From sequence record NC_007637.1: 45,251 bases of DNA. One strand, given 5' to 3'. The notes beneath the pieces were generated by a model. The model ran no database searches, had not been told where the DNA came from, and worked only from the letters and a program-made list of their open reading frames with translations. Position 1 is the first letter of the stretch, and each line of letters begins with the position of its first letter. Below, piece after piece: positions 4,104 through 40,477 of this stretch. A program made the translations under genes and the position numbers. The DNA is from Escherichia phage K1E.

Positions 4104-6731
4104 ATGCAAGACCTACACGCTATTCAACTTCAACTTGAAGAAGAAATGTTTAACGGCGGCATCCGTCGCTTTGAAGCGGACCAACAACGCCAGATTGCAT
4201 CCGGTAATGAATCAGACACGGCATGGAATCGCCGCTTATTGTCCGAACTAATCGCACCTATGGCGGAAGGTATTCAGGCTTACAAGGAAGAATACGAAGG
4301 CAAGAGAGGTCGTGCACCACGTGCATTAGCTTTCATTAACTGCGTAGGAAACGAAGTGGCAGCATATATCACCATGAAAATCGTTATGGATATGCTGAAT
4401 ACAGACGTTACCTTACAAGCTATCGCTATGAATGTAGCAGACCGCATCGAGGACCAAGTACGTTTTAGCAAGCTGGAAGGTCACGCAGCTAAGTACTTTG
4501 AGAAAGTGAAGAAGTCGCTTAAGGCTAGCAAGACTAAATCTTATCGTCATGCGCACAACGTAGCGGTAGTAGCTGAGAAATCTGTTGCTGACCGTGACGC
4601 GGATTTCTCCCGTTGGGAGGCATGGCCTAAAGACACCTTGCTGCAAATCGGTATGACCTTGCTCGAAATATTGGAGAATAGTGTATTCTTCAATGGTCAA
4701 CCTGTCTTCCTTCGTACCTTGCGCACTAACGGCGGAAAGCATGGTGTTTACTATTTACAGACCAGTGAACATGTTGGCGAGTGGATAACTGCATTTAAGG
4801 AACATGTAGCGCAGCTCAGCCCTGCCTATGCACCTTGCGTTATACCTCCCCGCCCTTGGGTATCACCTTTTAACGGTGGGTTTCATACTGAGAAAGTAGC
4901 AAGCCGTATTCGTCTGGTAAAAGGCAATCGTGAGCACGTCCGCAAGCTGACCAAAAAGCAAATGCCAGCCGTTTATAAGGCTGTTAACGCTTTGCAGGCA
5001 ACTAAGTGGCAGGTTAATAAAGAGGTTTTACAGGTTGTGGAGGACGTTATACGTCTAGACCTCGGCTATGGTGTACCTTCCTTTAAACCACTCATCGACC
5101 GTGAGAACAAGCCAGCTAATCCGGTGCCGTTAGAGTTCCAGCACCTGCGAGGCCGTGAACTGAAAGAAATGTTAACACCGGAACAATGGCAAGCCTTCAT
5201 CAACTGGAAAGGTGAATGCACCAAGCTGTATACCGCTGAGACTAAGCGCGGCAGCAAATCGGCGGCGACCGTCCGCATGGTAGGGCAGGCCCGTAAATAC
5301 AGCCAATTTGACGCAATATACTTCGTGTATGCTCTGGACAGCCGCAGCCGCGTCTACGCGCAATCTAGCACGCTCTCTCCGCAATCAAACGACTTAGGCA
5401 AGGCATTGCTCCGTTTTACCGAAGGGCAGCGTCTTGATAGCGCTGAGGCGCTTAAGTGGTTTTTGGTGAACGGGGCTAATAACTGGGGTTGGGATAAGAA
5501 AACTTTTGACGTGCGCACCGCTAACGTGCTGGATAGTGAATTTCAAGACATGTGCCGCGACATTGCAGCGGATCCGCTGACCTTCACTCAATGGGTAAAT
5601 GCCGACTCCCCTTACGGCTTCCTTGCATGGTGCTTTGAATATGCGCGTTATCTGGATGCACTGGATGAAGGCACGCAAGACCAATTCATGACGCACCTCC
5701 CAGTCCATCAAGATGGTAGTTGTTCTGGTATCCAGCACTACAGTGCTATGCTACGCGATGCAGTAGGTGCGAAAGCAGTAAACCTTAAGCCCTCTGACTC
5801 TCCTCAAGATATTTATGGTGCCGTTGCGCAGGTAGTAATTCAGAAGAATTATGCATACATGAATGCAGAGGATGCGGAAACCTTCACTTCTGGCAGCGTG
5901 ACTTTAACAGGTGCGGAACTGCGTAGTATGGCTAGTGCGTGGGATATGATAGGAATCACTCGCGGCCTGACCAAAAAGCCCGTAATGACACTACCTTATG
6001 GCAGCACACGTCTAACCTGCCGTGAGTCAGTGATTGATTATATCGTTGATTTAGAAGAAAAAGAGGCCCAACGGGCTATTGCGGAAGGGCGTACCGCCAA
6101 TCCTGTACACCCTTTTGATAATGACCGTAAAGACAGCCTGACACCTAGCGCAGCTTATAACTATATGACAGCTTTAATCTGGCCTTCTATCTCGGAAGTG
6201 GTTAAAGCCCCTATAGTGGCAATGAAAATGATTCGTCAGCTTGCACGTTTCGCAGCTAAAAGAAACGAAGGCTTAGAATATCCCTTACCAACTGGCTTCA
6301 TCTTGCAACAAAAGATAATGGCTACCGATATGCTCCGCGTATCCACTTGCTTGATGGGTGAAATCAAGATGAGTCTCCAGATTGAAACAGATGTAGTTGA
6401 TGAAACGGCAATGATGGGTGCGGCTGCTCCTAACTTCGTCCATGGTCACGATGCTAGCCACCTGATTCTGACTGTATGTGACCTAGTGGATAAAGGTATT
6501 ACATCCGTTGCAGTCATCCATGATTCTTTCGGTACTCATGCAGGACGTACCGCAGACCTGCGGGATAGCTTAAGGGAAGAAATGGTTAAGATGTATCAAA
6601 ACCATAATGCCCTGCAAAACCTGCTAGATGTGCACGAAGAGCGTTGGTTAGTAGACACCGGAATCCAAGTACCAGAGCAAGGGGAGTTTGACCTTAACGA
6701 AATCTTAGTTTCAGACTATTGTTTCGCATAA
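4104..6731 (+). CDS. Single-subunit DNA-dependent RNA polymerase (T7/SP6 type, 875 aa)
   Basis: AGGAG RBS; motifs [19 protein letters not shown] and C-terminal ...DYCFA parallel T7 RNAP ([19 protein letters not shown], ...FAFA). Confidence 0.95.
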
Positions 6732-6804
6732 TATTAATAGGCCATTCCTTCGGGAGTGGCTTTCTTTTACCTACTACCTGTAACATTTCATTAACATAAA
6801 ACGT

Positions 6805-6820
6805 GTCTCACATGTGAGAC
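6805..6820. repeat. Palindromic hairpin GTCTCACATGTGAGAC, copy A
   Basis: Perfect 16-bp palindrome followed by TTTATTT, immediately upstream of the promoter at 6824. Confidence 0.7.
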
Positions 6821-6823
6821 TTT

Positions 6824-6846
6824 ATTTACCGGACACTATAGGATAG
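6824..6846 (+). promoter_or_regulatory. SP6-type phage promoter (+1 G at 6841)
   Basis: ATTTACCGGACACTATAGGATAG; the transcript would begin with hairpin ccgtc-gga-gacgg. Confidence 0.75.
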
Positions 6847-6986
6847 CCGTCGGAGACGGGAAAGAAAGGGAAGATAAAGGATATAAAGGAAGTAATAGGT
6901 ATTAAAGGTTATATAGGTTATCTAGGAATACCTATTACCTTCTTCCTTCCTCTTATTACCACTTAGAGGAAGGGCAGACCTAGGTT
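6847..6986. promoter_or_regulatory. Candidate primary replication origin: AT/purine-rich dyad region between two phage promoters
   Basis: Purine-rich run, then 11-bp inverted repeat taataggtatt (6893..6903) / aatacctatta (6927..6937), then a pyrimidine-rich run. Position matches the T7 primary origin, just downstream of gene 1. Confidence 0.4.
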
Positions 6987-7002
6987 GTCTCACATGTGAG
7001 AC
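6987..7002. repeat. Palindromic hairpin GTCTCACATGTGAGAC, copy B
   Basis: Perfect 16-bp palindrome, immediately upstream of the promoter at 7008. Confidence 0.7.
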
Positions 7003-7007
7003 TTCGT

Positions 7008-7030
7008 ATTTACCGGACAGTATAGATAAG
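7008..7030 (+). promoter_or_regulatory. SP6-type phage promoter (+1 G at 7025)
   Basis: ATTTACCGGACAGTATAGATAAG; one mismatch in the core. Confidence 0.65.
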
Positions 7031-7055
7031 ATTAACTCACTTTGGAGATTTAACC

Positions 7056-7184
7056 ATGCGTAACTTTGAGAAGATGACCCGTAAAGCTAACCGTTTTGAC
7101 ATGGAAGAAGGGCAGAAGAAAGGCAAGAAGCTGAATAAACCTGTCCGTGACCGTGCATCTAAACGCGCAGCGTGGGAGTTCTAA
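7056..7184 (+). CDS. Hypothetical small basic protein (42 aa)
   Basis: ATG 7056 with GGAGA upstream; stop TAA 7182..7184; found by manual translation. Confidence 0.4.
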   Translation: MRNFEKMTRKANRFDMEEGQKKGKKLNKPVRDRASKRAAWEF

Positions 7185-7187
7185 GTT

Positions 7188-7406
7188 ATGGCTAAATACA
7201 GAATCAAGACCTGTTTAAATAGTCACGGGCAAGAGTGTTACATAGTGCAACGTAAAGTATTAGGCTTAATATGGGTCACATGTATGATGCCTATTGGATA
7301 TACTGATACAGAGGCTATCTTCTGCACCGAAAGGGATGCAAAGCAGTTTATCTCTAAGCGTAGAAAAGCTGACTCTTATCAACCCAGAACTATTAAGGTG
7401 AACTAA
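7188..7406 (+). CDS. Hypothetical protein (72 aa)
   Basis: Track ORF; its stop overlaps the primase ATG (TAATG). Confidence 0.45.
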   Translation: MAKYRIKTCLNSHGQECYIVQRKVLGLIWVTCMMPIGYTDTEAIFCTERDAKQFISKRRKADSYQPRTIKVN

Positions 7407-9394
7407 TGGCTATTATTAATAACATCCCGTGTCCTGCTTGTCAGAAGAATGGACACGATAAATCCGGCAACCACCTCATGATATTTGATGATGGTGCTGG
7501 CTATTGCAACCGTGGTCACTTCCATGATAATGGCAAGCCCTACTATCACAAGCCAGAGGGTGGCATCGAGATAACCGAATTGCCTATTACTGGCAATATC
7601 AAATATACACCTTCTCAATTCAAAGAGATGGAGAAGGAAGGGAAGATAAGCGACCCTAAGTTGCGCGCCATCGCACTTGGTGGTATGCGTATGAAAGACC
7701 GTTGGGAGGTCATGAATGAGCAAGAAAGGGCAGACCAAGAAGCAGAGTGGAAACTTGATGTTGAATGGTTCCTCACGCTTAAGCGTAAGAACCTTGTGTC
7801 CCGTCACATTCGAGGTGACATCGCAGCAATGTACGATGTGCGCGTTGGACACGATGAAGAGGGAAGAGTCAACCGTCACTATTATCCACGATATGAAAAG
7901 GGTGTGCTTGTTGGAGCAAAATGCCGGACGTTGCCGAAGGATTTTAAGTTCGGACACCTAGGTAAACTCTTTGGTATGCAAGACCTTTTCGGTATGAATA
8001 CTTTGTCTCACGTGTTAGACAAGGGAAGACGAAAGGATTGCTTGCTTATTGTGGGCGGCGAACTGGATGCACTAGCAGCACAGCAAATGCTCCTTGATTC
8101 TGCCAAGGGTACTAAGTGGGAAGGCCAGCCTTACCATGTATGGTCTGCCAATAAAGGTGAGTCTTGCCTTGAAGAGATAGTGCAAAACCGTGAGCACATA
8201 GCCCAATTCAAGAAGATTATATGGGGCTTTGATGGCGACGAGGTGGGGCAGAAGCAGAACCAACAAGCTGCTCGCCTGTTTCCTGGCAAATCCTACATCC
8301 TCGAATATCCCTCTGGTTGCAAAGATGCTAACAAGGCATTGATGGCTGGCAAGGCTAAAGAGTTTGTTGATGCTTGGTTTAATGCCAAGTCATCTGATGA
8401 AGTCTTTGGTAGCCAGATTAAATCTATCGCATCTCAAAGGGATAAGCTCAAGGCTGCACGTCCAGAGCAAGGACTATCATGGCCTTGGCCTAAGCTGAAC
8501 AAGGTAACGCTAGGTATTCGTAAGAACCAGCTTATCATTGTAGGTGCAGGCTCTGGTGTAGGTAAGACTGAGTTCCTTCGTGAAGTAGTTAAGCACCTCA
8601 TTGAAGAACACGGTGAATCTGTAGGCATCATTTCTACAGAAGACCCGATGGTCAAGGTGTCCCGTGCTTTTATCGGCAAGTGGATTGATAAGCGTATTGA
8701 GTTACCGCCAACCAACGACCCGAAAGAAGACGGATACCGTGAGGTGTTCGACTACACCGAGGAAGAAGCTAACGCTGCCATTGATTATGTGGCTGATACA
8801 GGAAAGTTATTTGTGGCTGACCTAGAAGGCGACTATTCTATGGAGAAGGTAGAGCAAACTTGCCTAGAGTTTGAGGCTATGGGCATTTCTAATATCATCA
8901 TTGATAACTTAACGGGGATTAAATTAGATGAGCGTGCTTTTGGTGGGAAGGTTGGTGCACTTGATGAATGCGTCAAACGAATTGGTACTATCAAAGACCG
9001 ACATGCGGTTACGATTTTCCTTGTCTCTCACCTTACACGTCCTCCGGCAAACCGTACCCAACACGAAGAAGGTGGCGAAGTTATCCTTTCTGACTTCCGA
9101 GGCTCAGGCGCTATCGGATTCTGGGCATCTTACGCCTTGGGGATTGAGCGTAATACAAGAGCTGAAACGCTTGACGAAAGGACTACCACGTACATCTCAT
9201 GTGTCAAAGACCGCGACCAAGGTATCTGGACTGGAACCAAGGTCATGCTTAAGGGTGACATTCAAACCGGACGTTTAATGGAACCACAAGCCCGTACTAA
9301 GTCATTTGATACAGGTGAAGCAAGGCAACAAGAAGTGCCGGATTTACCGGACACTATAGAAGAGACAACCTTTGACGATGAACAGGAGTTTTAA
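7406..9394 (+). CDS. DNA primase/helicase (T7 gp4-like, 662 aa)
   Basis: N-terminal Cys4 zinc ribbon (CPACQKNGHD...CNRGH), Walker A GAGSGVGKTEF, acidic C-terminus ...FDDEQEF ending in Phe as in T7 gp4. Confidence 0.9.
   Translation: MAIINNIPCPACQKNGHDKSGNHLMIFDDGAGYCNRGHFHDNGKPYYHKPEGGIEITELPITGNIKYTPSQFKEMEKEGKISDPKLRAIALGGMRMKDRWEVMNEQERADQEAEWKLDVEWFLTLKRKNLVSRHIRGDIAAMYDVRVGHDEEGRVNRHYYPRYEKGVLVGAKCRTLPKDFKFGHLGKLFGMQDLFGMNTLSHVLDKGRRKDCLLIVGGELDALAAQQMLLDSAKGTKWEGQPYHVWSANKGESCLEEIVQNREHIAQFKKIIWGFDGDEVGQKQNQQAARLFPGKSYILEYPSGCKDANKALMAGKAKEFVDAWFNAKSSDEVFGSQIKSIASQRDKLKAARPEQGLSWPWPKLNKVTLGIRKNQLIIVGAGSGVGKTEFLREVVKHLIEEHGESVGIISTEDPMVKVSRAFIGKWIDKRIELPPTNDPKEDGYREVFDYTEEEANAAIDYVADTGKLFVADLEGDYSMEKVEQTCLEFEAMGISNIIIDNLTGIKLDERAFGGKVGALDECVKRIGTIKDRHAVTIFLVSHLTRPPANRTQHEEGGEVILSDFRGSGAIGFWASYALGIERNTRAETLDERTTTYISCVKDRDQGIWTGTKVMLKGDIQTGRLMEPQARTKSFDTGEARQQEVPDLPDTIEETTFDDEQEF
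9342..9364 (+). promoter_or_regulatory. SP6-type phage promoter inside the 3' end of the primase/helicase gene (+1 G at 9359)
   Basis: ATTTACCGGACACTATAGAAGAG; perfect core. Confidence 0.7.
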
Positions 9395-9555
9395 TGGAAA
9401 TTATTAAACCAGTATTGAATATCGGTATTGAGATCCTATTCATGCTTGTGATCGCAGATTATGCTGCACGATATGGATTCAAGAAAGCTGTGAAACTTAT
9501 CGTTGCATCTGGTTTTCTTATGTCAATGTTCTTTATTGTAACACGCCTTATCTAG
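9394..9555 (+). CDS. Hypothetical small membrane protein (53 aa)
   Basis: ATG overlaps the primase stop (TAATG); AGGAG 5 nt upstream; two hydrophobic segments; found by manual translation. Confidence 0.45.
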   Translation: MEIIKPVLNIGIEILFMLVIADYAARYGFKKAVKLIVASGFLMSMFFIVTRLI

Positions 9556-9594: not shown

Positions 9595-9627
9595 TTATTA
9601 AGTACATTAAATAACTGGAGATTGATT

Positions 9628-10311
9628 ATGTATAGATTAGTATTGAATGTAGGTGATTATGTTCGTAACATCAATGAAGCCTCACGTCGTTATCGTTGCC
9701 GTGGTGTAGTGGCTCGTGTAAGTGAGAACATGTATCATGTAGAATATGAGGATGGTATTAAGGCTTCTTACCACAAGAAAACAGCACATAAATATCTTGA
9801 AAAGATTGTAGAGATAAACAATCAATGTAAGTGCATACATGATGAGGTTTGCGATAAATGTGCTCGCCAGATGCTTAAGAATTTCCTAGCTCCTCTTTAT
9901 TATGGTGCTGGTCCTCAAACACTAGCAGAGTACATGGCAGAAAAGAAAACCACACTCAAGAAAGAGCGTCGCAATGTAATCACTGGTAAGACTCAAAGTG
10001 AAATGATTAAGCAATGTGGCACTGCATTAGGTGTTACACAGTTCAATACTCGTGCATTGGGTAAATCCACAGGGCAAGCTATGGTGAAAATTGGTGAAGC
10101 TATGATGCACCCAAATGTGCCTGTGCGAATCTTGGATGTTGACCATGCAATCACAGAGCATGGCACACCACGGCGTGTAGCTAATAATCATTTCGCCGAC
10201 ACTATAGAAGGTATTATTCGTAAGCAAGGGTTGAAGGGTCTTCACATCTTAAATGGTGAAGAATTACTGTACCTACCTATCGTTACTGAAGAAACCTACG
10301 TGAATATCTAA
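9628..10311 (+). CDS. Hypothetical protein (227 aa)
   Basis: Track ORF starts at TTG 9622; first ATG is 9628 with GGAG upstream. Confidence 0.55.
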   Translation: MYRLVLNVGDYVRNINEASRRYRCRGVVARVSENMYHVEYEDGIKASYHKKTAHKYLEKIVEINNQCKCIHDEVCDKCARQMLKNFLAPLYYGAGPQTLAEYMAEKKTTLKKERRNVITGKTQSEMIKQCGTALGVTQFNTRALGKSTGQAMVKIGEAMMHPNVPVRILDVDHAITEHGTPRRVANNHFADTIEGIIRKQGLKGLHILNGEELLYLPIVTEETYVNI

Positions 10312-10904: not shown

Positions 10905-11109
10905 AGTCAGTAAGGTTTGCTCTTGCGGTAAAGGTTATCGCAGTCGTATTGATGGTAAGTGTGGGCATTGCAGGTCTAAGAAAGAGGCTGCTTTGTTTGA
11001 TAAGTACCACAATGAATTAGCATATAACTATCCTCATCTAACACCTAATTCTTTATTAGGACTTGGTTATAGGGTTAAATACTTTGGAGCAATCTATGAA
11101 ATCAATTGA
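10891..11109 (+). CDS. Hypothetical Cys-rich (zinc-ribbon-like) protein (72 aa)
   Basis: Track ORF trimmed to ATG 10891 (GAGG 6 nt upstream); CSCGKGYRSRIDGKCGHC. Confidence 0.45.
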   Translation: MKAIKVSKVCSCGKGYRSRIDGKCGHCRSKKEAALFDKYHNELAYNYPHLTPNSLLGLGYRVKYFGAIYEIN

Positions 11110-13642
11110 TTGGAAGAAGGAAGCAGAAGGCCGCATCTTAGTGATGGATTCTGAGGCTAAAGGCCTGCTGGATGCTATCCGATATGGCCACCGCGAAGAT
11201 GTGCACATCATTTGCTGCATGGATTTGCTTACTACAGAGGAGTTCCTCTTCTTTGACCCATACGAGATGCGTGACCCTGAAGCAAGAGAACGCCTAAAAG
11301 AATGGGAAGGCCATCAAGATGGAACATTGGTTGACGGTGTTAACTTCCTTAAACACTGCGAAGCCATCGTCTCACAGAACTTCCTAGGGTACGACGGCCT
11401 TCTATTTGAGAAAGCATTCCCTGATATCTGGAAAGGCTTTAACTATACCGAGAGACGCGGCAAGGGCAGACTCCGCGCTGACCTGTGTCCGGTACGCGTC
11501 ATGGATACGCTGGTCATGAGTCGCCTGTTAAACCCCGATAGACGCCTCCCTCCGCAAGCATACGCCAAAGGCATGGGTAACGTAGCCCCTCACTCAATTG
11601 AGGCGCACGGCATTCGTATAGGCCGTTATAAGCCGGAGAACGAGGATTGGTCTAAACTAACTGACCACATGGTACATCGTGTACGCGAGGACGTGGCGAT
11701 AGGCCGTGACCTATTCCTCTGGCTATTTAACGGAGAATGGACGGAGCACAAACGCCGTGGCGTGAATAAACGCACTGGCCTAGGTATTGAGACAGCCTTC
11801 CACATGGAGTCCATTGTGGCGCTGGAGATGAGCCGTCAGGCCGAGCGTGGATTCCGTCTGGATATAGATAAAGCATTAGCACGATGCGAGGAATTGGACG
11901 CTAAGATTGATGAGACAGTCGCAGCGTTCCGTCCGCACATGCCTATGCGTATCAAGTCTAAACCTTTTAAACCGGAAGAAAAGAATGAAGTATGCCAACG
12001 CGCAAATGAGTATGGAGCTAGCAACAATATACCTACTGTCCTTGACCCCTCTCACTTTCTTCACGCAGAGAGACGAGGAGATCGCAAGACAGTATGGAGT
12101 GTCACTACTAAGTCTGGTGATTGGTCGGCTAGCGTCAAGAAAGACTTTCCTCACCTTAGAGGAAACCGTAATGACACGCCAAGCATCAAGTGGATTGGCG
12201 CTTACTCGCCTGTTACTTTCGAAGAGATTCCCTTGGGTAACAGGGATACAGTTAAGCAAGTGCTCTATGATTATGGATGGAAAGGTGTTGAATTTAACGA
12301 TACCGAGCAAGCGCATCTCGATGAGCATGGCGTATTACCCAAGCCTTGGAGTGGGAAGATAAATGAAAAGTCCCTTACTTTATGGCAAGAGAGAGCCGCA
12401 CGTGAAGGTAAAACAGTCCCTGATTGGTGCTTGGGTATCGCTGCATGGTACATACTCGTATCCCGTCGTGGTCAGATCCTCAACCGTGGTGACGTTGAAG
12501 CCTTCGACCAGAAGGGGGTGTGGCCTTCGCAAGCTGGTATACGAAAGTGTCGCGGCCTTGTACCTGTAGCATTTAACAAGGAGTTAGGAATCAATGCGCA
12601 GCAATACTACGAAAGGTACGGATGCTGGCCTACGTCAGACAAGGATGACGGAGAATGGCGTGTGCCAGCTATTGCTATTAGTATTGGAACTTCTACGTTC
12701 CGTATGCGTCATCGTAACGTGGTTAATATTCCTGCCCGTGGTTTGTATCCTTTACGTGATTTATTCATAGCCGGTAAAGGTAAGCTAATCCTTGGTTGTG
12801 ATGGTGCTGGTCTTGAACTACGTGTACTGTCTCACTTCATGAATGACCCTGAATATCAAGATATTGTACTGCATGGTGACATTCACACCCATAATCAAAT
12901 GAAGGCTGGTCTTCCTAAGCGTGACATGGCGAAGACATTTATATATGCCTTCCTATATGGGTCTGGTATAGCTAACCTTGCAGCAGTATGTGGTGTTACT
13001 GAGGAAGAAATGGAGGAAGTTGTGGCAAGATTTGAGGTTGAACTACCATCTCTTGCACGTCTTCGTGAGAATGTTATCGCACAAGGTAACAAGTTTGGCT
13101 ACCTACAAGCACCTGATGGTCATTGGGGTCGCATCCGTATGTCTGGTGGTGAACTTAAAGAGCACACTATGCTTAACGTACTACTCCAGATGACTGGTTC
13201 TCTGTGTATGAAATACGCATTGGTCAGAGCGTTTGCAGTGATGCGCAAGGAAGGTGTGGCCTTAGATAGCATGGGAAACCCTTGCGGTATAGCTAACGTG
13301 CACGATGAAATCCAGATGGAAGTCCCTGAAGATGAGGTCTTGTATCTCAACTACGACTTGCCTTTCACCTTAGAAGGGTTCGAAACAGAGAAGGCTGCTG
13401 TGAAAGCAGTGTTCGATGCAGAGGAGAAACGTGTTCATGTGGATTCTGAAGGACGTATGTGGTCTGCTGCAAATCTCGTTAGCGTTGATGCTGATGCTGG
13501 TGTACTTCATTGCCAGCGTCGCTATCACCGTGCAGGGCATATCATTGCCGACGCAATGACTTGGGCGGGTCAGTATCTGAAGATGCGTTGTCCGATGGCA
13601 GGTGAGTATAAGATTGGTGCAAGTTGGAAGGAAACACACTGA
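11096..13642 (+). CDS. DNA polymerase, family A (848 aa)
   Basis: Track ORF trimmed to ATG 11096 (GGAG upstream). Exonuclease motif VMDSEAKG, motif A CDGAGLELRVL, motif B RDMAKTFIYAFLYG, motif C VHDEIQ. Confidence 0.9.
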   Translation: MKSIDWKKEAEGRILVMDSEAKGLLDAIRYGHREDVHIICCMDLLTTEEFLFFDPYEMRDPEARERLKEWEGHQDGTLVDGVNFLKHCEAIVSQNFLGYDGLLFEKAFPDIWKGFNYTERRGKGRLRADLCPVRVMDTLVMSRLLNPDRRLPPQAYAKGMGNVAPHSIEAHGIRIGRYKPENEDWSKLTDHMVHRVREDVAIGRDLFLWLFNGEWTEHKRRGVNKRTGLGIETAFHMESIVALEMSRQAERGFRLDIDKALARCEELDAKIDETVAAFRPHMPMRIKSKPFKPEEKNEVCQRANEYGASNNIPTVLDPSHFLHAERRGDRKTVWSVTTKSGDWSASVKKDFPHLRGNRNDTPSIKWIGAYSPVTFEEIPLGNRDTVKQVLYDYGWKGVEFNDTEQAHLDEHGVLPKPWSGKINEKSLTLWQERAAREGKTVPDWCLGIAAWYILVSRRGQILNRGDVEAFDQKGVWPSQAGIRKCRGLVPVAFNKELGINAQQYYERYGCWPTSDKDDGEWRVPAIAISIGTSTFRMRHRNVVNIPARGLYPLRDLFIAGKGKLILGCDGAGLELRVLSHFMNDPEYQDIVLHGDIHTHNQMKAGLPKRDMAKTFIYAFLYGSGIANLAAVCGVTEEEMEEVVARFEVELPSLARLRENVIAQGNKFGYLQAPDGHWGRIRMSGGELKEHTMLNVLLQMTGSLCMKYALVRAFAVMRKEGVALDSMGNPCGIANVHDEIQMEVPEDEVLYLNYDLPFTLEGFETEKAAVKAVFDAEEKRVHVDSEGRMWSAANLVSVDADAGVLHCQRRYHRAGHIIADAMTWAGQYLKMRCPMAGEYKIGASWKETH

Positions 13643-13924: not shown

Positions 13925-13947
13925 ATTTACTGGACACTATAGAAGGA
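13925..13947 (+). promoter_or_regulatory. SP6-type phage promoter (+1 G at 13942)
   Basis: ATTTACTGGACACTATAGAAGGA; followed by an AT-rich leader with CTAGGT repeats. Confidence 0.8.
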
Positions 13948-14011
13948 AAGCCTAGGTAATCTAGGTTTATAAGGTAGTATAGGTAATTAAATAAATATAG
14001 GAGATATAAAT

Positions 14012-14389
14012 ATGTCTATGGTAACTACTCTGGTATTCGTGGCTCAATACTTTCGTGGTCTTGCTAATAAGTTCAAGTCCAAGGCTATCAAAGCTATTGA
14101 GGCTCGCATCGAAGCAGTACAGGCAGAGCAAGTTAAAGTTGAAGAACATCGTAGTTCTCAAATGATTGACTGTCATAACCGCTACTATGCATCTCGTGAT
14201 GAACTAAATGCACGTCAAGTCAAAGAGGTAGAAGATATGCTGGCACGTCACCAGCAAGAGCGTGACAGCCTGAAAGCTGAATTTGAAGAGAACAAGGCAT
14301 CAATTGCTCTTGTAAATCAAGCTGCATCTGACAGCCTGAAGAAAGAGATTGTTATGCTGGAAATAGAACTGGACAACTTGACTAAATAA
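14012..14389 (+). CDS. Hypothetical protein, probable coiled coil (125 aa)
   Basis: ATG with TAGGAGA upstream; heptad-like charged sequence. Confidence 0.55.
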   Translation: MSMVTTLVFVAQYFRGLANKFKSKAIKAIEARIEAVQAEQVKVEEHRSSQMIDCHNRYYASRDELNARQVKEVEDMLARHQQERDSLKAEFEENKASIALVNQAASDSLKKEIVMLEIELDNLTK

Positions 14390-18102: not shown

Positions 18103-19102
18103 GCTTCGCAGCTTGTACAAAGACTCCGAGGTACTTGATGCAATCGAGCAAGCTACCGACGAGAAAGGTAATGTTAATTACAATGAGATGGCACGGATAT
18201 TATCGTGCCACCCTGTGGGTAAGAAGATTACCCGCCAGTTGGCTAGATACTGGCATGGTCAATTCAAGAAGACCAAGAAGAATGGTGATTACTACCAGAC
18301 CCTTCTGCAAGAGGATAAGCGTATCAAGGAAGAGCGTAAGCTCAGGACTCCTGACCGCTACGAGGATTTGGCTATTGTACCATTGCCTGACTCGCCTCAT
18401 CGAAGTGTACTGGTAATCCCTGATACCCATGCACCGTATGAGCACCCAGATACCTTAGAGTTCCTTGCAGCAGTGGCAGCACGTTACCGTCCTGATACGG
18501 TGGTTCATCTTGGAGATGAGGCAGACAAACATGCCTTATCGTTCCACGATTCGGACCCAAATCTGGACAGTGCTGGCATGGAGTTAGAGAAGGCCCGTGT
18601 CTTTATGCATAAATTACACAAGATGTTTCCTGTGATGCGCCTGTGTCATTCTAATCACGGCTCTATGCACTTCCGTAAGGCAAGCGCCAAAGGTATTCCT
18701 GTACAATATCTGCGTACCTATCGTGAAGTCTTCTTTCCGCATGGGGGTGGCGACCAGTGGGATTGGCAGCATACACACGTTCTTGAGTTGCCGAATGGTG
18801 AACAGGTTGCATTTAAGCATCAACCCGCAGGCTCAGTCTTAGCAGATGCAGCGCATGAGCGCATGAACTTAGTGTGCGGTCACTTGCATGGTAAGATGTC
18901 GGTGGAGTATGCACGTAATACACATGAACAGTATTGGGCTGTGCAGGGCGGCTGTTTGATTGATGAGTCATCTCGTGCATTTGCCTATGGTCGTGAGTCC
19001 AAATACAAGCCAGCATTAGGTTGTGTGGTTATTCTGGAGGGTGTGCCGCACATTGTCCCGATGCAGACCAATAGTGACAATCGCTGGATTGGTAAGATTT
19101 AG
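18095..19102 (+). CDS. Calcineurin-like metallophosphoesterase (about 335 aa); start uncertain
   Basis: Motifs VIPDTHAPYEH, HLGDEADKH and CHSNHGS. Track ORF starts at TTG 18062; proposed start is TTG 18095 (AAGGAGG 8 nt upstream); the first in-frame ATG is at 18188. Confidence 0.55.
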   Translation: MGKLRSLYKDSEVLDAIEQATDEKGNVNYNEMARILSCHPVGKKITRQLARYWHGQFKKTKKNGDYYQTLLQEDKRIKEERKLRTPDRYEDLAIVPLPDSPHRSVLVIPDTHAPYEHPDTLEFLAAVAARYRPDTVVHLGDEADKHALSFHDSDPNLDSAGMELEKARVFMHKLHKMFPVMRLCHSNHGSMHFRKASAKGIPVQYLRTYREVFFPHGGGDQWDWQHTHVLELPNGEQVAFKHQPAGSVLADAAHERMNLVCGHLHGKMSVEYARNTHEQYWAVQGGCLIDESSRAFAYGRESKYKPALGCVVILEGVPHIVPMQTNSDNRWIGKI

Positions 19103-37107: not shown

Positions 37108-37390
37108 ACATGCAGCTACAGAAGATGAGGTTGGCATCCTGCATGGTGCTATTACCAAAATCTTTAATAAGAAAGCACAGGCAATACTGGACACTATAGA
37201 AGAAGACCCAGATGCAGCACTGCATTTAGTCTCTGGTAAAGACATTGGAGCTATGTGTAAGTGGGTTCTTGATAATGGTATTACCGCTACACCTGCTGCA
37301 CAGCAGGAGGAGTCCAAGCTATCTAAGCGCCTCAAGGCTATCCGAGAGGCATCAAGTGGCAAGATTATTCAATTCACTAAGGAGGATTGA
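37091..37390 (+). CDS. Putative terminase small subunit (99 aa from GTG start)
   Basis: Track ORF starts at TTG 37046 inside the holin gene; proposed start is GTG 37091 with GGAGG 7 nt upstream; position matches T7 gene 18. Confidence 0.45.
   Translation: MSVHNKHAATEDEVGILHGAITKIFNKKAQAILDTIEEDPDAALHLVSGKDIGAMCKWVLDNGITATPAAQQEESKLSKRLKAIREASSGKIIQFTKED
37182..37204 (+). promoter_or_regulatory. Weak SP6-type promoter-like sequence inside coding sequence (+1 G at 37199)
   Basis: CAATACTGGACACTATAGAAGAA; perfect core with mismatches at -17 to -15. Confidence 0.4.
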
Positions 37391-38556
37391 TGGCTAAGGC
37401 AAGAGAATCACAAGCGGAGGCTCTTGCCAGATGGGAGATGCTACAGGAGTTACAGCAGACCTTTCCTTACACAGCGGAAGGTTTGCTTCTCTTTGCAGAC
37501 ACAGTTATTCATAACTTAATTGCAGGCAACCCTCATCTGATTCGTATGCAGGCTGATATCTTGAAGTTCCTATTCTACGGACACAAGTATCGCCTCATCG
37601 AAGCGCCTCGTGGTATCGCTAAGACAACACTATCAGCAATCTATACAGTATTCCGTATCATTCATGAACCGCATAAGCGTATCATGGTTGTATCCCAAAA
37701 CGCCAAGCGAGCAGAGGAAATCGCAGGTTGGGTAGTTAAAATCTTCCGTGGCCTAGACTTTCTTGAGTTTATGCTACCGGACATCTACGCAGGGGACCGT
37801 GCCTCAGTTAAGGCATTTGAGATTCATTACACCCTACGTGGCAGTGACAAGTCGCCTTCTGTGTCTTGTTACTCAATCGAAGCAGGTATGCAGGGTGCGC
37901 GTGCAGATATCATCCTAGCAGATGACGTTGAGTCAATGCAGAATGCTCGTACAGCGGCAGGACGTGCCTTGCTTGAGGAACTGACCAAGGAGTTTGAATC
38001 TATTAACCAGTTTGGTGATATTATCTACCTTGGTACTCCTCAGAACGTAAACTCTATCTACAATAACCTACCTGCTCGTGGTTACTCTGTTCGTATCTGG
38101 ACTGCACGTTATCCCTCAGTGGAGCAGGAGCAATGCTATGGTGACTTCCTTGCACCTATGATTGTGCAGGATATGAAGGACAACCCAGCACTTCGCTCAG
38201 GGTATGGCTTGGATGGCAATAGTGGTGCCCCTTGTGCACCTGAAATGTATGATGATGATGTGCTGATTGAGAAGGAAATCTCGCAGGGTGCGGCTAAGTT
38301 CCAGCTTCAGTTCATGCTTAACACTCGCATGATGGATGCTGACCGCTATCCGCTACGCCTGAACAACCTCATCTTCACTTCATTCGGTACAGAGGAAGTC
38401 CCTGTGATGCCTACGTGGAGCAATGATTCCATCAATATTATTGGCGATGCACCGAAGTATGGCAATAAGCCTACAGACTTCATGTATCGACCTGTGGCTC
38501 GCCCGTATGAATGGGGCGCTGTCACTCGTAAGATTATGTATATTGACCCTGCTGGT
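37390..38556 (+). CDS. Terminase large subunit, exon 1 (389 codons)
   Basis: ATG 37390 with AAGGAGG upstream; Walker A-like PRGIAKTT and Walker B ADIILADDVE; similarity to T7 gp19 stops at ...IDPAG, where an insertion begins. Confidence 0.85.
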
Positions 38557-39311
38557 AAACACCTCTGCCAGCGTAAAACCCTCTTAATTCGGTGGAACTC
38601 TCACTGAGACAATACCGAGCGAAGCCTGTTGCAATAACAGGAACGTGTAGAGACTAACTGTAAGGCCAAGCGGTCTGAAACAGAGGGAGGCGCAAGCCTA
38701 AGATATAGTCCGACCTACTAGGTGACTAGTAGAAGTTAAAGTAGCGAATTAACGTAACAATTGAAGGGAGTTAAATATGACAGAGCATAAAGTTTATCAT
38801 ATTCGTGTTGTTGGTGAAACTGATGTAATGCAAGGTTATATTGGTGTAACCTCCGATATTAAGAAGCGTATGAGAGAGCACAAGTGTGCAGGCCGTCTTT
38901 GTGATGGCCGCGAGTACGTTATCTTATTCACTGGTAGCAAAGAAGAGTGTTATGCACTAGAAGAGAAGCTACGCCCACATGACAACATGGGTTGGAATAA
39001 GGGTAAAGGTGGTTATCGCAAAGCAGGTAACATCGAGAAAGGTGAACGCATAAGTATTGCCACTGAAATCAAGAAAGGACAGCACTTGTCTGTTGCCACT
39101 GAGTTCAAGAAAGGCATGACACCTTACAACAAAGGTACTGGCAAAGATTACATATTCACTTCTCCAGATGGTGAAGAGTTTCTTGTAACTTGCATTACTG
39201 ACTTCTGTAAAGAGCACAACCTAACACCTCAGAATATGCGTAAGGTGGCACGTGGTTTACGTAAACACCACAAGGGTTGGCTCGCACGTCACGTTCAAAC
39301 CGGGAGGTAAG
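38557..39311 (+). mobile_element. Group I intron (candidate, self-splicing) carrying a homing endonuclease gene
   Basis: Conserved elements in canonical order: P AATTCGGTGGAA (38586..38597), Q AATACCGAGC (38611..38620), R GTAGAGACTAACTG (38647..38660), S AAGATATAGTCC (38700..38711). P1 pairing of exon GCTGGT (38551..38556) with GCCAGC (38567..38572). The 3' boundary is uncertain: G39311 or G39302. Confidence 0.75.
38777..39310 (+). CDS. GIY-YIG homing endonuclease (I-TevI-like, 177 aa) encoded within the intron
   Basis: AAGGGAG RBS; N-terminal KVYHIRVV...GYIGVTSDIKKRMREH (GIY-YIG with conserved Arg/Glu); central repeated GERISIATEIKKG / HLSVATEFKKG units; basic C-terminal DNA-binding-like region. 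Confidence 0.8.
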   Translation: MTEHKVYHIRVVGETDVMQGYIGVTSDIKKRMREHKCAGRLCDGREYVILFTGSKEECYALEEKLRPHDNMGWNKGKGGYRKAGNIEKGERISIATEIKKGQHLSVATEFKKGMTPYNKGTGKDYIFTSPDGEEFLVTCITDFCKEHNLTPQNMRKVARGLRKHHKGWLARHVQTGR

Positions 39312-40034
39312 AATGGGGATGAAACGGGTGTGGCTATCGTCTTCCTGCACGGCACATTCATTTATGTGTATCAGTGCTTTGGTGTGCCGGGAGGATACCG
39401 CGAATCGTCCCTGAATCGCATTGTGCAGGCCGCAAAGCAGGCAGGTGTTAAAGAGGTATTCATTGAAAAGAACTTTGGTCATGGCGCGTTTGAGGCCGTT
39501 ATAAAGCCATACTTTGAACGAGAGTGGCCTGTGACTCTGGAGGAAGATTACGCCACCGGACAGAAAGAGTTGCGTATCATTGAAACACTAGAGCCACTAA
39601 TGGCGGCCCACAGGCTCATCTTCAACGCAGAGATGGTCAAGTCTGATTTTGAGTCGGTACAGCACTATCCGCTTGAGCTACGCATGTCATACAGCCTTTT
39701 CAATCAAATGTCGAACATCACGATTGAGAAGAACAGCCTACGACACGATGACCGCTTAGACGCTCTGTATGGCGCTATACGGCAATTAACTTCTCAGATA
39801 GACTATGACGAGGTTACACGGATTAATCGCCTCAGAGCGCAGGAGATGCGCGATTACATCCATGCTATGAACACACCTCACCTCCGTAGGGCAATGCTCT
39901 ATGGAGATTATGGCACTGAGCGAAGAGTAACCAACACTTCCGTGGCTATGCAGCAAAGAGTATACGGTCAGAATTACAGGAGTAAATCGGCAAGCAGAAA
40001 TACACTTTCTGCAAGGATTTCAAGGACTTATTAA
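39312..40034 (+). CDS. Terminase large subunit, exon 2 (240 codons; may instead begin at 39303)
   Basis: NGDETGVAIVFLHG...EKNFGHGAFEAV...QKELRIIETLEPLMAAHRLIFN...HDDRLDAL parallels the C-terminal nuclease domain of T7 gp19. Confidence 0.85.
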   Translation, partial: NGDETGVAIVFLHGTFIYVYQCFGVPGGYRESSLNRIVQAAKQAGVKEVFIEKNFGHGAFEAVIKPYFEREWPVTLEEDYATGQKELRIIETLEPLMAAHRLIFNAEMVKSDFESVQHYPLELRMSYSLFNQMSNITIEKNSLRHDDRLDALYGAIRQLTSQIDYDEVTRINRLRAQEMRDYIHAMNTPHLRRAMLYGDYGTERRVTNTSVAMQQRVYGQNYRSKSASRNTLSARISRTY

Positions 40035-40055
40035 TTACCGGACACTATAGAAGGA
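40033..40055 (+). promoter_or_regulatory. SP6-type phage promoter (+1 G at 40050)
   Basis: AATTACCGGACACTATAGAAGGA; followed by an AT/purine-rich leader that shares AGGTTATATAGGTATT with the 6847..6986 region. Confidence 0.75.
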
Positions 40056-40198
40056 AGGCCCAGATAATAAGAGAAATAACAAGGATAATATAGGTTAACC
40101 TAGGTTATATAGGTATTCCTTAGTATGGGTGTACTCCTGTACACCCTATTCCTTACTTCCTTACTATACTTACATAATAGGAGAGAGAGAGAGAGAGA

Positions 40199-40477
40199 AT
40201 GTCTAATAGTTATAGTACACAACCTCTTACAGGTAAGTCTGCTCGTAAGCAGATACAACCTGTTAGTGAAGCCCTTATGCTTCCTGTAGTTTACGAGGAC
40301 ACTGTTGAGAAGAAAGGTGATGTTATTAATGATGCCACCAAATCAGGTAAGCAGAAAGGGGCCATGGTGTGTCTTGATACACATGATAACCTGGTTATTG
40401 CTATCGCAGTTGATGGCAAAGAAGATTCCAATTGGTTGACAGCTAATAAAGCGGTCACTACTATTACCCCAGCTTAA
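40199..40477 (+). CDS. Hypothetical protein (92 aa), paralog of the next gene
   Basis: ATG 40199 preceded by AGGA plus a (GA)9 run; shares SGKQKGAMV and overall layout with the 40490 product. Confidence 0.55.
   Translation: MSNSYSTQPLTGKSARKQIQPVSEALMLPVVYEDTVEKKGDVINDATKSGKQKGAMVCLDTHDNLVIAIAVDGKEDSNWLTANKAVTTITPA

Follow-up and report, generated by a model that had tools for sequence, protein, structure and literature searches.

In phage T7, the region running from the RNA polymerase gene through the promoters phi1.1A and phi1.1B to gene 1.1 is the primary or native replication origin (PMC8373140; PMC12796468), and phiOR is a documented secondary origin; T7 without the primary origin still replicates, from its secondary origins (PMC8373140). 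For SP6, bidirectional replication has been suggested to start at gene 14, the DNA polymerase gene, according to the passage of PMC4837284 that cites Dobbins et al. 2004. A literature search, with the original genome papers (Dobbins 2004, Scholl 2004) outside its reach, returned no mapped replication origin for any SP6/K1E-type phage. Phages of this kind serve in therapy against K1 E. coli and as chassis for engineering, and laboratories use their RNA polymerases and promoters as standard tools. Knowing the origin would aid genome rebooting and engineering and the construction of orthogonal T7-ori-like replication systems, such as those of PMC8373140 and PMC12796468; it would also help explain the evolution of transcription-primed replication across the T7 supergroup.

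The window, meaning the whole stretch of 45,251 nucleotides that we analysed (NC_007637.1), is the complete genome of phage K1E, a Vectrevirus podophage of the K1E/K1-5 type. The segment 6805-7030 is the SP6/K1E-lineage positional counterpart of the T7 primary origin, and its most likely role, which we hold with about even confidence, is that of a transcription-activated origin combined with a middle-promoter pair. Because it combines the layout of the T7 primary origin with a conserved AGGT array, the segment is a credible candidate; the label of candidate origin in the initial annotation is justified, but the ranks "primary" and "secondary" used there are not established. From 6739 to 7056, the order is terminator, palindrome, promoter P1, 5' hairpin, AGG array, CCT-rich arm with hairpins, palindrome, promoter P2, and gene 1.1, as follows:

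4104..6731, + strand: single-subunit phage RNA polymerase gene (phrog_414 RNA polymerase, E 4.8e-290), the left border
6739..6768, + strand: intrinsic host-type terminator from a terminator scan, with a stem of 10 pairs (6739-6762) and then a T-rich tail
6805..6820, no strand: 16-bp palindrome GTCTCACATGTGAGAC, P1 copy, exact match
6824..6846, + strand: phage promoter P1, conserved in 23 related loci
6847..6859, + strand: small hairpin CCGTC-GGA-GACGG, at +7 to +19 of the P1 transcript
6860..6926, + strand: array of seven AGG(T/A) repeats, rich in purines and easily melted (period 9 in Tandem Repeats Finder; spacing table)
6886..6944, + strand: inverted repeat or hairpin I, formed by the CCT-rich arm and the final units of the array; present in the minimum-energy fold
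6945..6973, + strand: hairpin II, CCTTCCTCT / AGAGGAAGG, 9 pairs
6987..7002, no strand: 16-bp palindrome GTCTCACATGTGAGAC, P2 copy, exact match
7008..7030, + strand: phage promoter P2, the variant with ACAGTATAG, predicted +1 at 7025
7056..7184, + strand: 42-aa ORF, T7 gene 1.1 homolog (phrog_2490), the right border of the module

The gene order equals that of the T7 primary origin because the ORF after P2 is a gp1.1 homolog (56% identity to T7 gp1.1, E 1e-12 by BLASTP); such a homolog occurs at the ~6-kb map position in SP6-like and T7-like phages alike (tblastn). The succession of RNA polymerase, two phage promoters, and gene 1.1 in the T7 annotation thus bears out the earlier statement that the T7 origin lies in the same place. 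The RNA polymerase label is also given to the counterparts in K1-5 and relatives. The placement between the RNA polymerase and primase genes holds with the qualification that two ORFs, 7056..7184 and 7188..7406, precede the primase/helicase gene (7406..9394). Wholly inside 6732-7055 there is no ORF of at least 30 aa, and the shorter ones are not conserved. No sigma-70-like host promoter site was found in 6500-7300; the terminator at 6739..6768 is annotated as such in one relative, and its GGCCnnCCTTCGGGnnGGCC plus T-run is kept in all relatives.

Each locus has a tandem pair of rightward phage promoters (spacing of 184 bp in K1E and 75 bp in T7) with a hairpin between them, and in both a promoter is directly followed by one of the least stable tracts of the genome, which carries a periodic short repeat nearly unique in that genome (AGGT here, TTAAG in T7). 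The sole TTAAG cluster of T7, at 5931-5953, lies inside the AT-rich tract of the origin, a motif picked after viewing the sequence. However, the melted tract follows both promoters in T7 and only P1 here, between P1 and P2; it is purine-rich with 70% AT here and simply AT-rich in T7, and the repeat motifs are unrelated in sequence. K1E also carries an extra host-type terminator and two copies of the 16-bp palindrome, and the primase/helicase gene follows almost at once, which is not the case in T7. The origin function is proven in T7, whereas that of the K1E segment is a candidate one.

The phage-promoter family of the genome has 13 members with the degenerate consensus ATTTACYGGACANTATAG, of which 0.21 matches are expected by chance. 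P1 and P2, the two phage promoters that the initial annotation placed directly after the RNA polymerase gene, each match it with 0 mismatches. By analogy with the SP6 promoter, the +1 of P1 is presumably G6841. P2 is separated from the start of gene 1.1 by only 25 nt and shows 99.5% identity among 10 Vectrevirus relatives. Likewise, each promoter is indeed preceded by the palindrome, with an exact GTCTCACATGTGAGAC 3 bp upstream of P1 and 5 bp upstream of P2. The window holds 8 copies at no more than 2 mismatches, against 0.28 expected, and a copy is found at the syntenic position in SP6, Pm5460, PP1, and Kp_H01; the palindrome that flanks the module co-varies genome-wide. That the palindrome is simply a terminator was rejected, because a T-rich tail is missing after some copies and after all the SP6 equivalents.

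The segment between the promoters had been described as a 140-bp AT/purine-rich stretch, which is half right, since the overall composition of 6847-6986 is 61% AT and 59% purine compared with 55% and 53.5% in the genome. The description fits the left part (6860-6926), with 70% AT and 75% purine, but not the right part (6927-6986), which is pyrimidine-rich with 40% purine; the most purine-rich 60-mer of the genome is 6840-6899 (82%). The AGG units start at 6867, 6878, 6887, 6897, 6906, 6915, and 6924, with spacings of 11, 9, 10, 9, 9, and 9, and this phasing is kept in all relatives. Among 10 arrays from five genera, with 4-8 units per array, 43 of the 53 spacings are 8-11 bp, 33 of them being 9 or 10. 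A 9-10-bp spacing, about one helical turn, would suit an element acting in DNA better than a single-stranded-RNA binding site.

In a duplex-stability scan, the 6860-6926 tract is the third least stable of the genome at 60 and 80 bp and the second at 100 bp. Two points count against the origin reading: the AT content is modest (70% over 67 bp), and similar scores occur at other AT-rich intergenic stretches (9595, 2121, and 933). T7 served as the control: there the origin-associated leaders of phiOL, phi6.5, phi1.1B, and phiOR come out as the four least stable windows of 80 bp. By the same scan, the post-polymerase module ranks first to fourth in SP6, Pm5460, PP1, and Kp_H01. All five genera examined retain the module layout, at polymerase C-terminal identities as low as 73%, and the Vectrevirus non-coding segments are 96-99.5% identical compared with 89-90.5% for the flanking coding DNA. 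Such conservation need not mean origin function, because T7 dispenses with its primary origin (PMC8373140).

The AGGT array recurs in two further leaders, which had been proposed as possible secondary origins:

13925..14011, + strand: promoter (13925-13947) and leader with four TAGGT/AAGGT units, running into the RBS of ORF 14012..14389
40033..40198, + strand: promoter (40033-40055) and 143-nt leader, directly 3' of the terminase-large gene

When a cluster is defined as at least three copies of [TA]AGGT[AT] with gaps of no more than 20, the + strand has clusters at exactly three sites (6896, 13953, and 40091), each just downstream of a phage promoter, in agreement with the repeat-bearing leaders noted earlier; 0.025 clusters are expected (200 dinucleotide shuffles, maximum 1). 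From our own calculation that the ~100-nt leaders of the 13 promoters make up ~3% of the genome, the probability of all three falling in leaders is ~2e-5. In the T7-calibrated scan of this genome, the three AGGT leaders rank first, third, and sixth among the least stable 80-bp windows.

As a possible second origin, the leader at 40033-40198 comes first because it combines the same build with the position of T7 phiOR. Its order is AGGT array (AGG at 40082, 40092, 40102, and 40111), GC hairpin at 40127-40146, CT-rich tract, and (GA)9; this layout recurs in SP6, Pm5460, PP1, and Kp_H01, where the hairpin stem differs in each phage and is always fully complementary, and all five genera retain the post-terminase module. 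The promoter directly follows terminase-large, much as phiOR, with its 160-nt leader, is found 99 bp past gene 19, and the leaders of phiOR and phi6.5 are, like this one, among the least stable windows of their genomes. However, phiOR is ~700 bp from the right end of T7, whereas ~5 kb of lysis and tailspike genes follow here, and the AGGT array, covarying GC hairpin, and CT tract bear no sequence resemblance to T7. The 13925 leader is the weaker candidate. Its AGG units (13954, 13963, 13972, and 13981) are spaced by exactly 9 bp and it is the least stable 60-100-bp window in the genome; it is conserved in K1E-like phages and SP6 only, being absent from Pm5460, PP1, and Kp_H01.

Pairwise alignment supports relatedness of the three leaders in part: the similarity of 6847-6986 to 40056-40198 beats shuffles (0/500), while that of 13947-14011 to 40056-40198 is marginal (20/500 shuffles) and that of 6847-6986 to 13947-14011 is not significant (70/500 shuffles as good). 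The word shared by the first pair is the 13-mer AGGTTATATAGGT (at 6906 and 40102), not the 16-mer AGGTTATATAGGTATT reported before. In Kp_H01, the post-polymerase and post-terminase arrays share a 37-nt run with 34 identical positions, and in PP1 both arrays contain the same degenerate ATGTCT unit; these shared quirks suggest concerted evolution or a common reader. Similarity between arrays of the same genome averages 40 on the diagonal compared with 31 off it, and concerted evolution as a general rule was set aside, being clear in only two of the five genomes (PP1 and Kp_H01).

If the post-polymerase segment acts as an origin, the following course may be proposed. The phage RNA polymerase would initiate at P1 (G6841) and, ~20 nt on, enter the 67-bp easily melted tract, where the transcript is ~75% purine. 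The purine-rich RNA on its pyrimidine-rich template would form an unusually stable RNA:DNA hybrid, an R-loop, whose RNA 3' end could be extended rightward by the phage DNA polymerase as the leading strand. The primase/helicase, whose gene lies 350 bp downstream, might then load on the displaced + strand, and P2, 184 bp further, would act as a second entry point like T7 phi1.1B. Since base pairing between the array and the CCT-rich arm is possible in RNA, the transcript would be either a DNA-bound primer or a folded-back mRNA hairpin. To our knowledge, T7-type replication needs no initiator protein. The R-loop-primed origins of ColE1 (RNA II) and of mitochondria (light-strand promoter/CSB region), the latter using a T7-like RNA polymerase, would be alike in having a promoter followed by a purine-rich transcript able to form a persistent RNA:DNA hybrid, and in an alternative RNA fold that could choose between primer and free transcript; CSB-type G-runs are absent here, and the likeness would be one of mechanism only.

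A broader proposal, which we consider rather doubtful, is that the AGGT arrays with their one-helical-turn spacing are a previously undescribed lineage-wide functional element of the SP6-like phages (Molineuxvirinae), marking two or three transcription-activated origins and forming their working part: post-polymerase, post-terminase, and, in some phages, after the DNA polymerase gene. The arrays might, for example, hold the hybridised purine-rich transcript and load the primase/helicase. If this were true, the T7 TTAAG array would be the equivalent, and periodic short repeats, rather than AT-richness alone, would define T7-type origins.

The post-polymerase tract could double as an RNA-level leader, because the same sequence has conserved hairpin potential. 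A more exclusive alternative, a serious rival though somewhat unlikely, is that the region serves solely as a leader for expression and RNA processing and has no replication role, P1 and P2 being middle promoters in tandem that drive gene 1.1 and the primase/helicase; the 5' hairpin would be stabilising, and the long imperfect AGG/CCT helix would be cut by host RNase III in the manner of T7 R1.1 or would set mRNA stability or translation. The hairpin at 6847..6859 speaks for a role in RNA, being the sole family-wide consensus helix of 5 pairs in RNAalifold (23 sequences), whose third pair covaries, with G-C in 14, A-U in 4, and U-A in 3 sequences; in our own reading of the alignment, L021_phD2B has A-U, and L015 has C-G after correction of a one-base shift. 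The inverted repeat is real and slightly longer than the 11 bp first given, with a perfect core of 12 nt (GTAATAGGTATT / AATACCTATTAC) that extends to 18 nt at 89% complementarity (6886-6903 / 6927-6944). Hairpin I has ~21 pairs in the minimum-energy fold, in the range of RNase III-type irregular hairpins of ~20 or more pairs, and has an equivalent in every relative, formed by different alignment columns and different repeat units. Hairpin II has a counterpart at the same place in SP6 (CCTTCCTATTA / TAATAGGAAGG). All nine representative relatives fold more stably than shuffles (z-scores of -1.8 to -4.7), complementary CCT/CT-rich tracts follow the purine-rich arrays of the post-polymerase and post-terminase modules alike, and the post-terminase one has its strongly covarying GC hairpin. 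Rfam gave nothing above threshold in the region; weak matches to long-hairpin miRNA-precursor models over 6866-6964 on both strands reflect the long hairpin and are in keeping with a leader.

T7 also has a hairpin between phi1.1A and phi1.1B (fold z of -2.5), which we take to be the RNase III site R1.1 described by Dunn and Studier in 1983. Like R1.1, the K1E structure would lie between two promoters, as a stable, irregular hairpin of the RNA made from the first; the two structures lack sequence similarity, and cleavage in K1E is only a candidate event. Early transcripts of the host polymerase do reach the hairpin in T7, whereas here a host terminator precedes P1, and therefore such transcripts normally would not reach it. 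A search of the literature on SP6-like RNase III sites or transcriptomes returned nothing relevant.

Several observations argue against a leader that does nothing else. Beyond the 5' hairpin, RNAalifold finds no family-wide covarying helix for the large hairpins among the 23 sequences, a weak result because the repeat array makes the alignment unreliable there. Furthermore, the array at 13947-14011 has no complementary arm, and the spacing of AGG by one helical turn has no obvious RNA rationale. P2 alone would be enough for expression, yet P1 and its leader are kept in every relative. In T7, the origin and RNA-processing roles share the same 160 bp, and the leader reading is hence compatible with the origin function favoured here.

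It is improbable that the arrays are instead iteron-like sites for a trans-acting phage early/middle or host protein that, sitting on a single face of the duplex, would control the promoters next to it or seed a complex for replication or recombination, or that, as RNA, they titrate an RNA-binding factor or 30S subunits via Shine-Dalgarno-like AGGU cores. The seven AGG units at 9-11 bp are direct repeats phased by whole helical turns, as in iterons, and the 8-11-bp spacing holds across the arrays of the five genera; the genome-specific quirks common to both arrays in PP1 and Kp_H01 point the same way, and the genome-wide co-variation of the palindrome shows that these phages do have factors able to read short DNA or RNA motifs in a sequence-specific manner. 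However, there is no candidate binding protein among our findings, the same-genome similarity of arrays is not general, and the AGGU core would pair with only 4 nt of the anti-Shine-Dalgarno. The motif AGGT fits no host-factor consensus that we know of, which also counts against such sites. A CsrA or Hfq sponge was set aside on inspection, the conserved core being AGGU(A/U) and not GGA or an A-R-N triplet.

We give little credence to an origin elsewhere, such as in the DNA polymerase gene or close to it, the site suggested for SP6, with the post-polymerase region unrelated to replication: the detrended AT-skew maximum at 12415, inside the DNA polymerase gene (11063..13642), agrees with the SP6 suggestion, known second-hand from the cited passage of PMC4837284 and seemingly, at a guess, based on compositional skew, but in T7 the same statistics miss the true origin at 5.9 kb, the GC-skew minimum falling at 9537 and the AT-skew maximum at 14135, and the skew extremes scatter among relatives. 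Skew mainly mirrors transcription and coding, because all genes are on one strand. The GC-skew check recommended at the outset was uninformative, the skew being positive in every 1-kb window without a consistent change point. The detrended GC-skew minimum is at 7624 here and at 6690 in SP6; as an origin marker it was rejected, since it falls at 9808, at 28584, and at the genome end in three relatives, besides its failure in T7.

The candidate origin also contains a GCA trinucleotide at 6964-6966, within GGGCAGAC; 5'-GCA-3' is reportedly the recognition site of SP6 primase, a finding attributed to Tseng, Frick and Richardson in 2000. Too common a word to carry weight, this GCA is not conserved in Pm5460, PP1, phD2B, and the Klebsiella phages, and it is kept in Vectrevirus and SP6.

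The non-coding module between the RNA polymerase gene and a homolog of T7 gene 1.1 runs, from 5' to 3' after the polymerase stop codon, through a terminator, palindrome 1, promoter P1, a hairpin, an AGG(T/A) array, a CCT-rich arm, another hairpin, palindrome 2, and promoter P2.

Features of the post-polymerase module and its surroundings (window coordinates)
4104..6731, + strand, single-subunit RNA polymerase gene
6739-6768, intrinsic terminator after the polymerase stop codon
6824..6846, phage promoter P1
6847-6859, 13-nt hairpin directly after P1
6867-6926, array of seven AGG(T/A) units spaced 9-11 bp apart
between the array and the second hairpin, CCT-rich arm complementary to the last array units
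6945-6973, second hairpin, between the CCT-rich arm and palindrome 2
7008..7030, phage promoter P2
7406..9394, + strand, primase/helicase gene
11063..13642, + strand, DNA polymerase gene
632, 6805, 6987, 8005, 9573, 10750, 15901 and 32586, eight copies of the GTCTCACATGTGAGAC palindrome

The initial annotation had proposed a primary replication origin here, and its description of the region is confirmed with small corrections. The two 23-mers taken as promoters, at 6824 and 7008, are members of a 13-site family in the window that fits the consensus ATTTACYGGACANTATAG (0.21 expected by chance). Exact copies of GTCTCACATGTGAGAC lie 3 bp upstream of P1 and 5 bp upstream of P2; allowing at most 2 mismatches, the window has eight copies (0.28 expected). 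The inverted repeat, described as 11 bp, is present as 18 nt with a 12-nt perfect core, pairing the last array units with the CCT-rich arm. The AT/purine-rich character ascribed to the whole 140-bp inter-promoter segment holds for the left 67 bp (70% AT, 75% purine) but not for the pyrimidine-rich right part; overall the segment is 61% AT, and no 60-mer in the genome is richer in purine than 6840-6899.

The window is a complete linear genome from the K1E/K1-5 group of SP6-like podophages (genus Vectrevirus, subfamily Molineuxvirinae), with all large ORFs on the + strand. The neighborhood of the module matches K1-5, K1E, and many Vectrevirus records at 94-100% identity, and SP6 at ~72%. We compared 25 related loci from viral contigs and the whole genomes of SP6, Proteus phage Pm5460, Pectobacterium phage PP1, Klebsiella phage vB_Kp_H01, and T7. 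The order from terminator to gene 1.1 is kept in every relative, even at 73% identity of the polymerase C-terminus, barring two element losses; the second palindrome copy is absent in Pm5460, PP1, and Kp_H01, and Klebsiella phages carry a divergent small ORF where a recognizable gene 1.1 would be. AGG phasing supplies some of the few invariant columns in the alignment. Among Vectrevirus members, identity is 96-99.5% in the non-coding segments, against 89-90.5% in the polymerase and primase coding DNA on either side. A 72-aa ORF at 7188-7406 (phrog_24605, no assigned function), lying past gene 1.1 and ahead of the primase/helicase gene, is a variable insertion adjoining the candidate origin; it is missing from all ten Vectrevirus relatives compared, which accounts for the 73% coverage seen in many BLAST matches.

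The claim that the module occupies the same place as the T7 primary origin is borne out by the T7 annotation, in which gene 1 (end 5822) is followed by phi1.1A (5848), phi1.1B (5923), and gene 1.1 (6007). The 42-codon ORF at 7056..7184, starting 25 nt past P2, is the gene 1.1 homolog (56% identity, E 1e-12), so the two phages share the gene-promoter-promoter-gene order, and tblastn places this small protein at the ~6-kb map position in SP6-like and T7-like phages alike. The remaining replication genes of T7, in contrast, are arranged differently from those of this lineage. The T7 gene 1-gene 1.1 interval is called the primary or native origin (PMC8373140, PMC12796468). The promoter at 40033 lies immediately downstream of the terminase-large gene, with a 143-nt leader, and resembles T7 phiOR, located 99 bp past gene 19 with a 160-nt leader and documented as a secondary origin (PMC8373140).

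Nearest-neighbor duplex stability was ranked genome-wide in 80-bp windows, with T7 as the calibration. The four least stable T7 windows are all promoter leaders.

Least stable 80-bp windows of T7 (locus L035)
383-462, leader of phiOL
5928-6007, leader of phi1.1B
18557-18636, leader of phi6.5
39248-39327, leader of phiOR

Among these four are the primary origin and the two secondary origins that PMC8373140 names. The ranking provides a simple sequence criterion that recovers the origin-associated promoters of T7. In the window, the three leaders with AGGT arrays rank first (13957), third (6861), and sixth (40046), and the post-polymerase module ranks fourth in SP6, second in Pm5460, first in PP1, and second in Kp_H01. 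The second least stable 80-bp stretch of the window, 9595-9674, lies in the gap after the primase/helicase gene, just past the 9573 palindrome copy; an AGGT array is absent there, and a promoter (9342) stands ~250 nt upstream. In T7, phiOL is also associated with replication. The only TTAAG cluster of T7, at 5931-5953, falls within the AT-rich tract of its origin. Although this motif was picked after viewing the sequence, a unique short periodic repeat straight after an origin promoter is a design common to both.

On the + strand of the window, clusters of [TA]AGGT[AT] occur at exactly three sites, 6896, 13953, and 40091 (0.025 in dinucleotide shuffles), the same three leaders that had been described as related. 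Only the first (6847-6986) and third (40056-40198) leaders align better than shuffles (0 of 500 as good); the pairing of first and second (13947-14011) gives no such excess (70 of 500), and that of second and third is marginal (20 of 500). The word common to the first and third leaders, quoted as a 16-mer, is in fact the 13-mer AGGTTATATAGGT. Post-polymerase and post-terminase arrays are found in all five genera, in PP1 by inspection only, a strict AGGT cluster scan of PP1 giving zero clusters; the post-DNA-polymerase array is restricted to the K1E group and SP6. Such arrays, at one-turn spacing and kept in five genera, are among the less expected findings.

The origin reading of the initial annotation is partly supported. 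By its synteny, stability ranking, and conservation, the region is a soundly based candidate T7-type origin, a known type of element, while the labels "primary" and "secondary" are unproven. We give about even chances to its being the equivalent, in the SP6 lineage, of the primary origin of T7, with a transcription-primed mechanism. Transcription from P1 would run into the easily melted purine-rich tract, the purine-rich RNA would remain hybridized on the pyrimidine-rich template, and the phage DNA polymerase would elongate it rightward as the primase/helicase loads onto the displaced + strand; P2 would provide redundancy, and within the RNA the CCT arm would pair with the array in competition with the hybrid.

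A pure expression and processing leader is a possible but doubtful alternative. The 5' hairpin is the sole helix retained by RNAalifold (23 sequences), its third pair being G-C in 14, A-U in 4, and U-A in 3; after re-registering by eye, the related loci phD2B and L015 show A-U and C-G. The segment from this hairpin to P2 is more stable than shuffles in nine of nine diverged representatives (z -1.8 to -4.7), with pairing repeat units that vary from phage to phage. The post-terminase GC hairpin, followed by a CT-rich tract, has a different stem in each of five genera with complementarity kept, and in T7, too, a hairpin, the RNase III site R1.1, lies between the two origin promoters. Because of these features, the region may additionally have a part in RNA stability or processing, as in T7. 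No complementary arm accompanies the array at 13947-14011, and therefore the hairpin cannot be the whole purpose of the arrays. That the array is a series of binding sites for a putative factor is improbable. The origin, leader, and binding-array readings overlap, as in T7, and no Rfam family covers the region.

GC skew, suggested as a check on the origin, is uninformative. It is positive in all 1-kb windows, and the detrended minimum lies near the region in the window (7624) and SP6 (6690) but away from it in three relatives; the method fails its control, since the T7 minimum is at 9537. The only published proposal traced, as reported in PMC4837284 (citing Dobbins 2004), locates the origin of SP6 within its DNA polymerase gene, and is weakened by this failure on T7.

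The palindrome takes the form GTC(C/T)AAC..GTTGGAC outside the K1E group, and most GTCTCACATGTGAGAC positions are syntenic with such copies in SP6, Pm5460, PP1, and Kp_H01. Several copies cap terminator-like hairpins and others stand immediately upstream of promoters; one lies within the primase/helicase ORF, where the codons track the genome's variant (..SHV.. vs ..SNV..). This genome-wide co-variation, also among the less expected findings, suggests a putative sequence-specific reader. CTCGCC and AGGGTGTG repeats near both ends of the window are consistent with a direct terminal repeat. At the left end (1-720), they are followed by ~13 CTTAG(G/T) repeats (358-490), CCTAGCC repeats (585-609), and the palindrome at 632; the unit GCCTTAGTGGG there resembles the array-hairpin junction of the SP6 post-terminase leader. 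Pm5460, unlike the window, has a phage promoter directly after its own left-end palindrome.

By eye, the post-DNA-polymerase promoter and leader (13925-14389) look nearly identical to SP6 (L031) 12540-13006, compared with only ~72% identity for the post-RNA-polymerase region. In PP1 and Kp_H01, the gene that comes next (125 aa, phrog_7450) is preceded by a promoter without an AGGT array. This pattern suggests recent exchange of a promoter-plus-gene cassette. The post-terminase leader ends in a perfect (GA)9 (40181-40198) abutting the start codon at 40199, where relatives have an ordinary GGAG ribosome-binding site. The terminase-large gene (37387-40034) is split into N-terminal (37387..38607) and C-terminal (39252..40034) ORFs; they are separated by an Rfam group I intron (38525-38732, 63.6 bits vs gathering score 50) and by an ORF resembling HNH endonucleases (38777..39310). 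An essential packaging gene thus seems to be interrupted by a self-splicing intron that carries a homing endonuclease.
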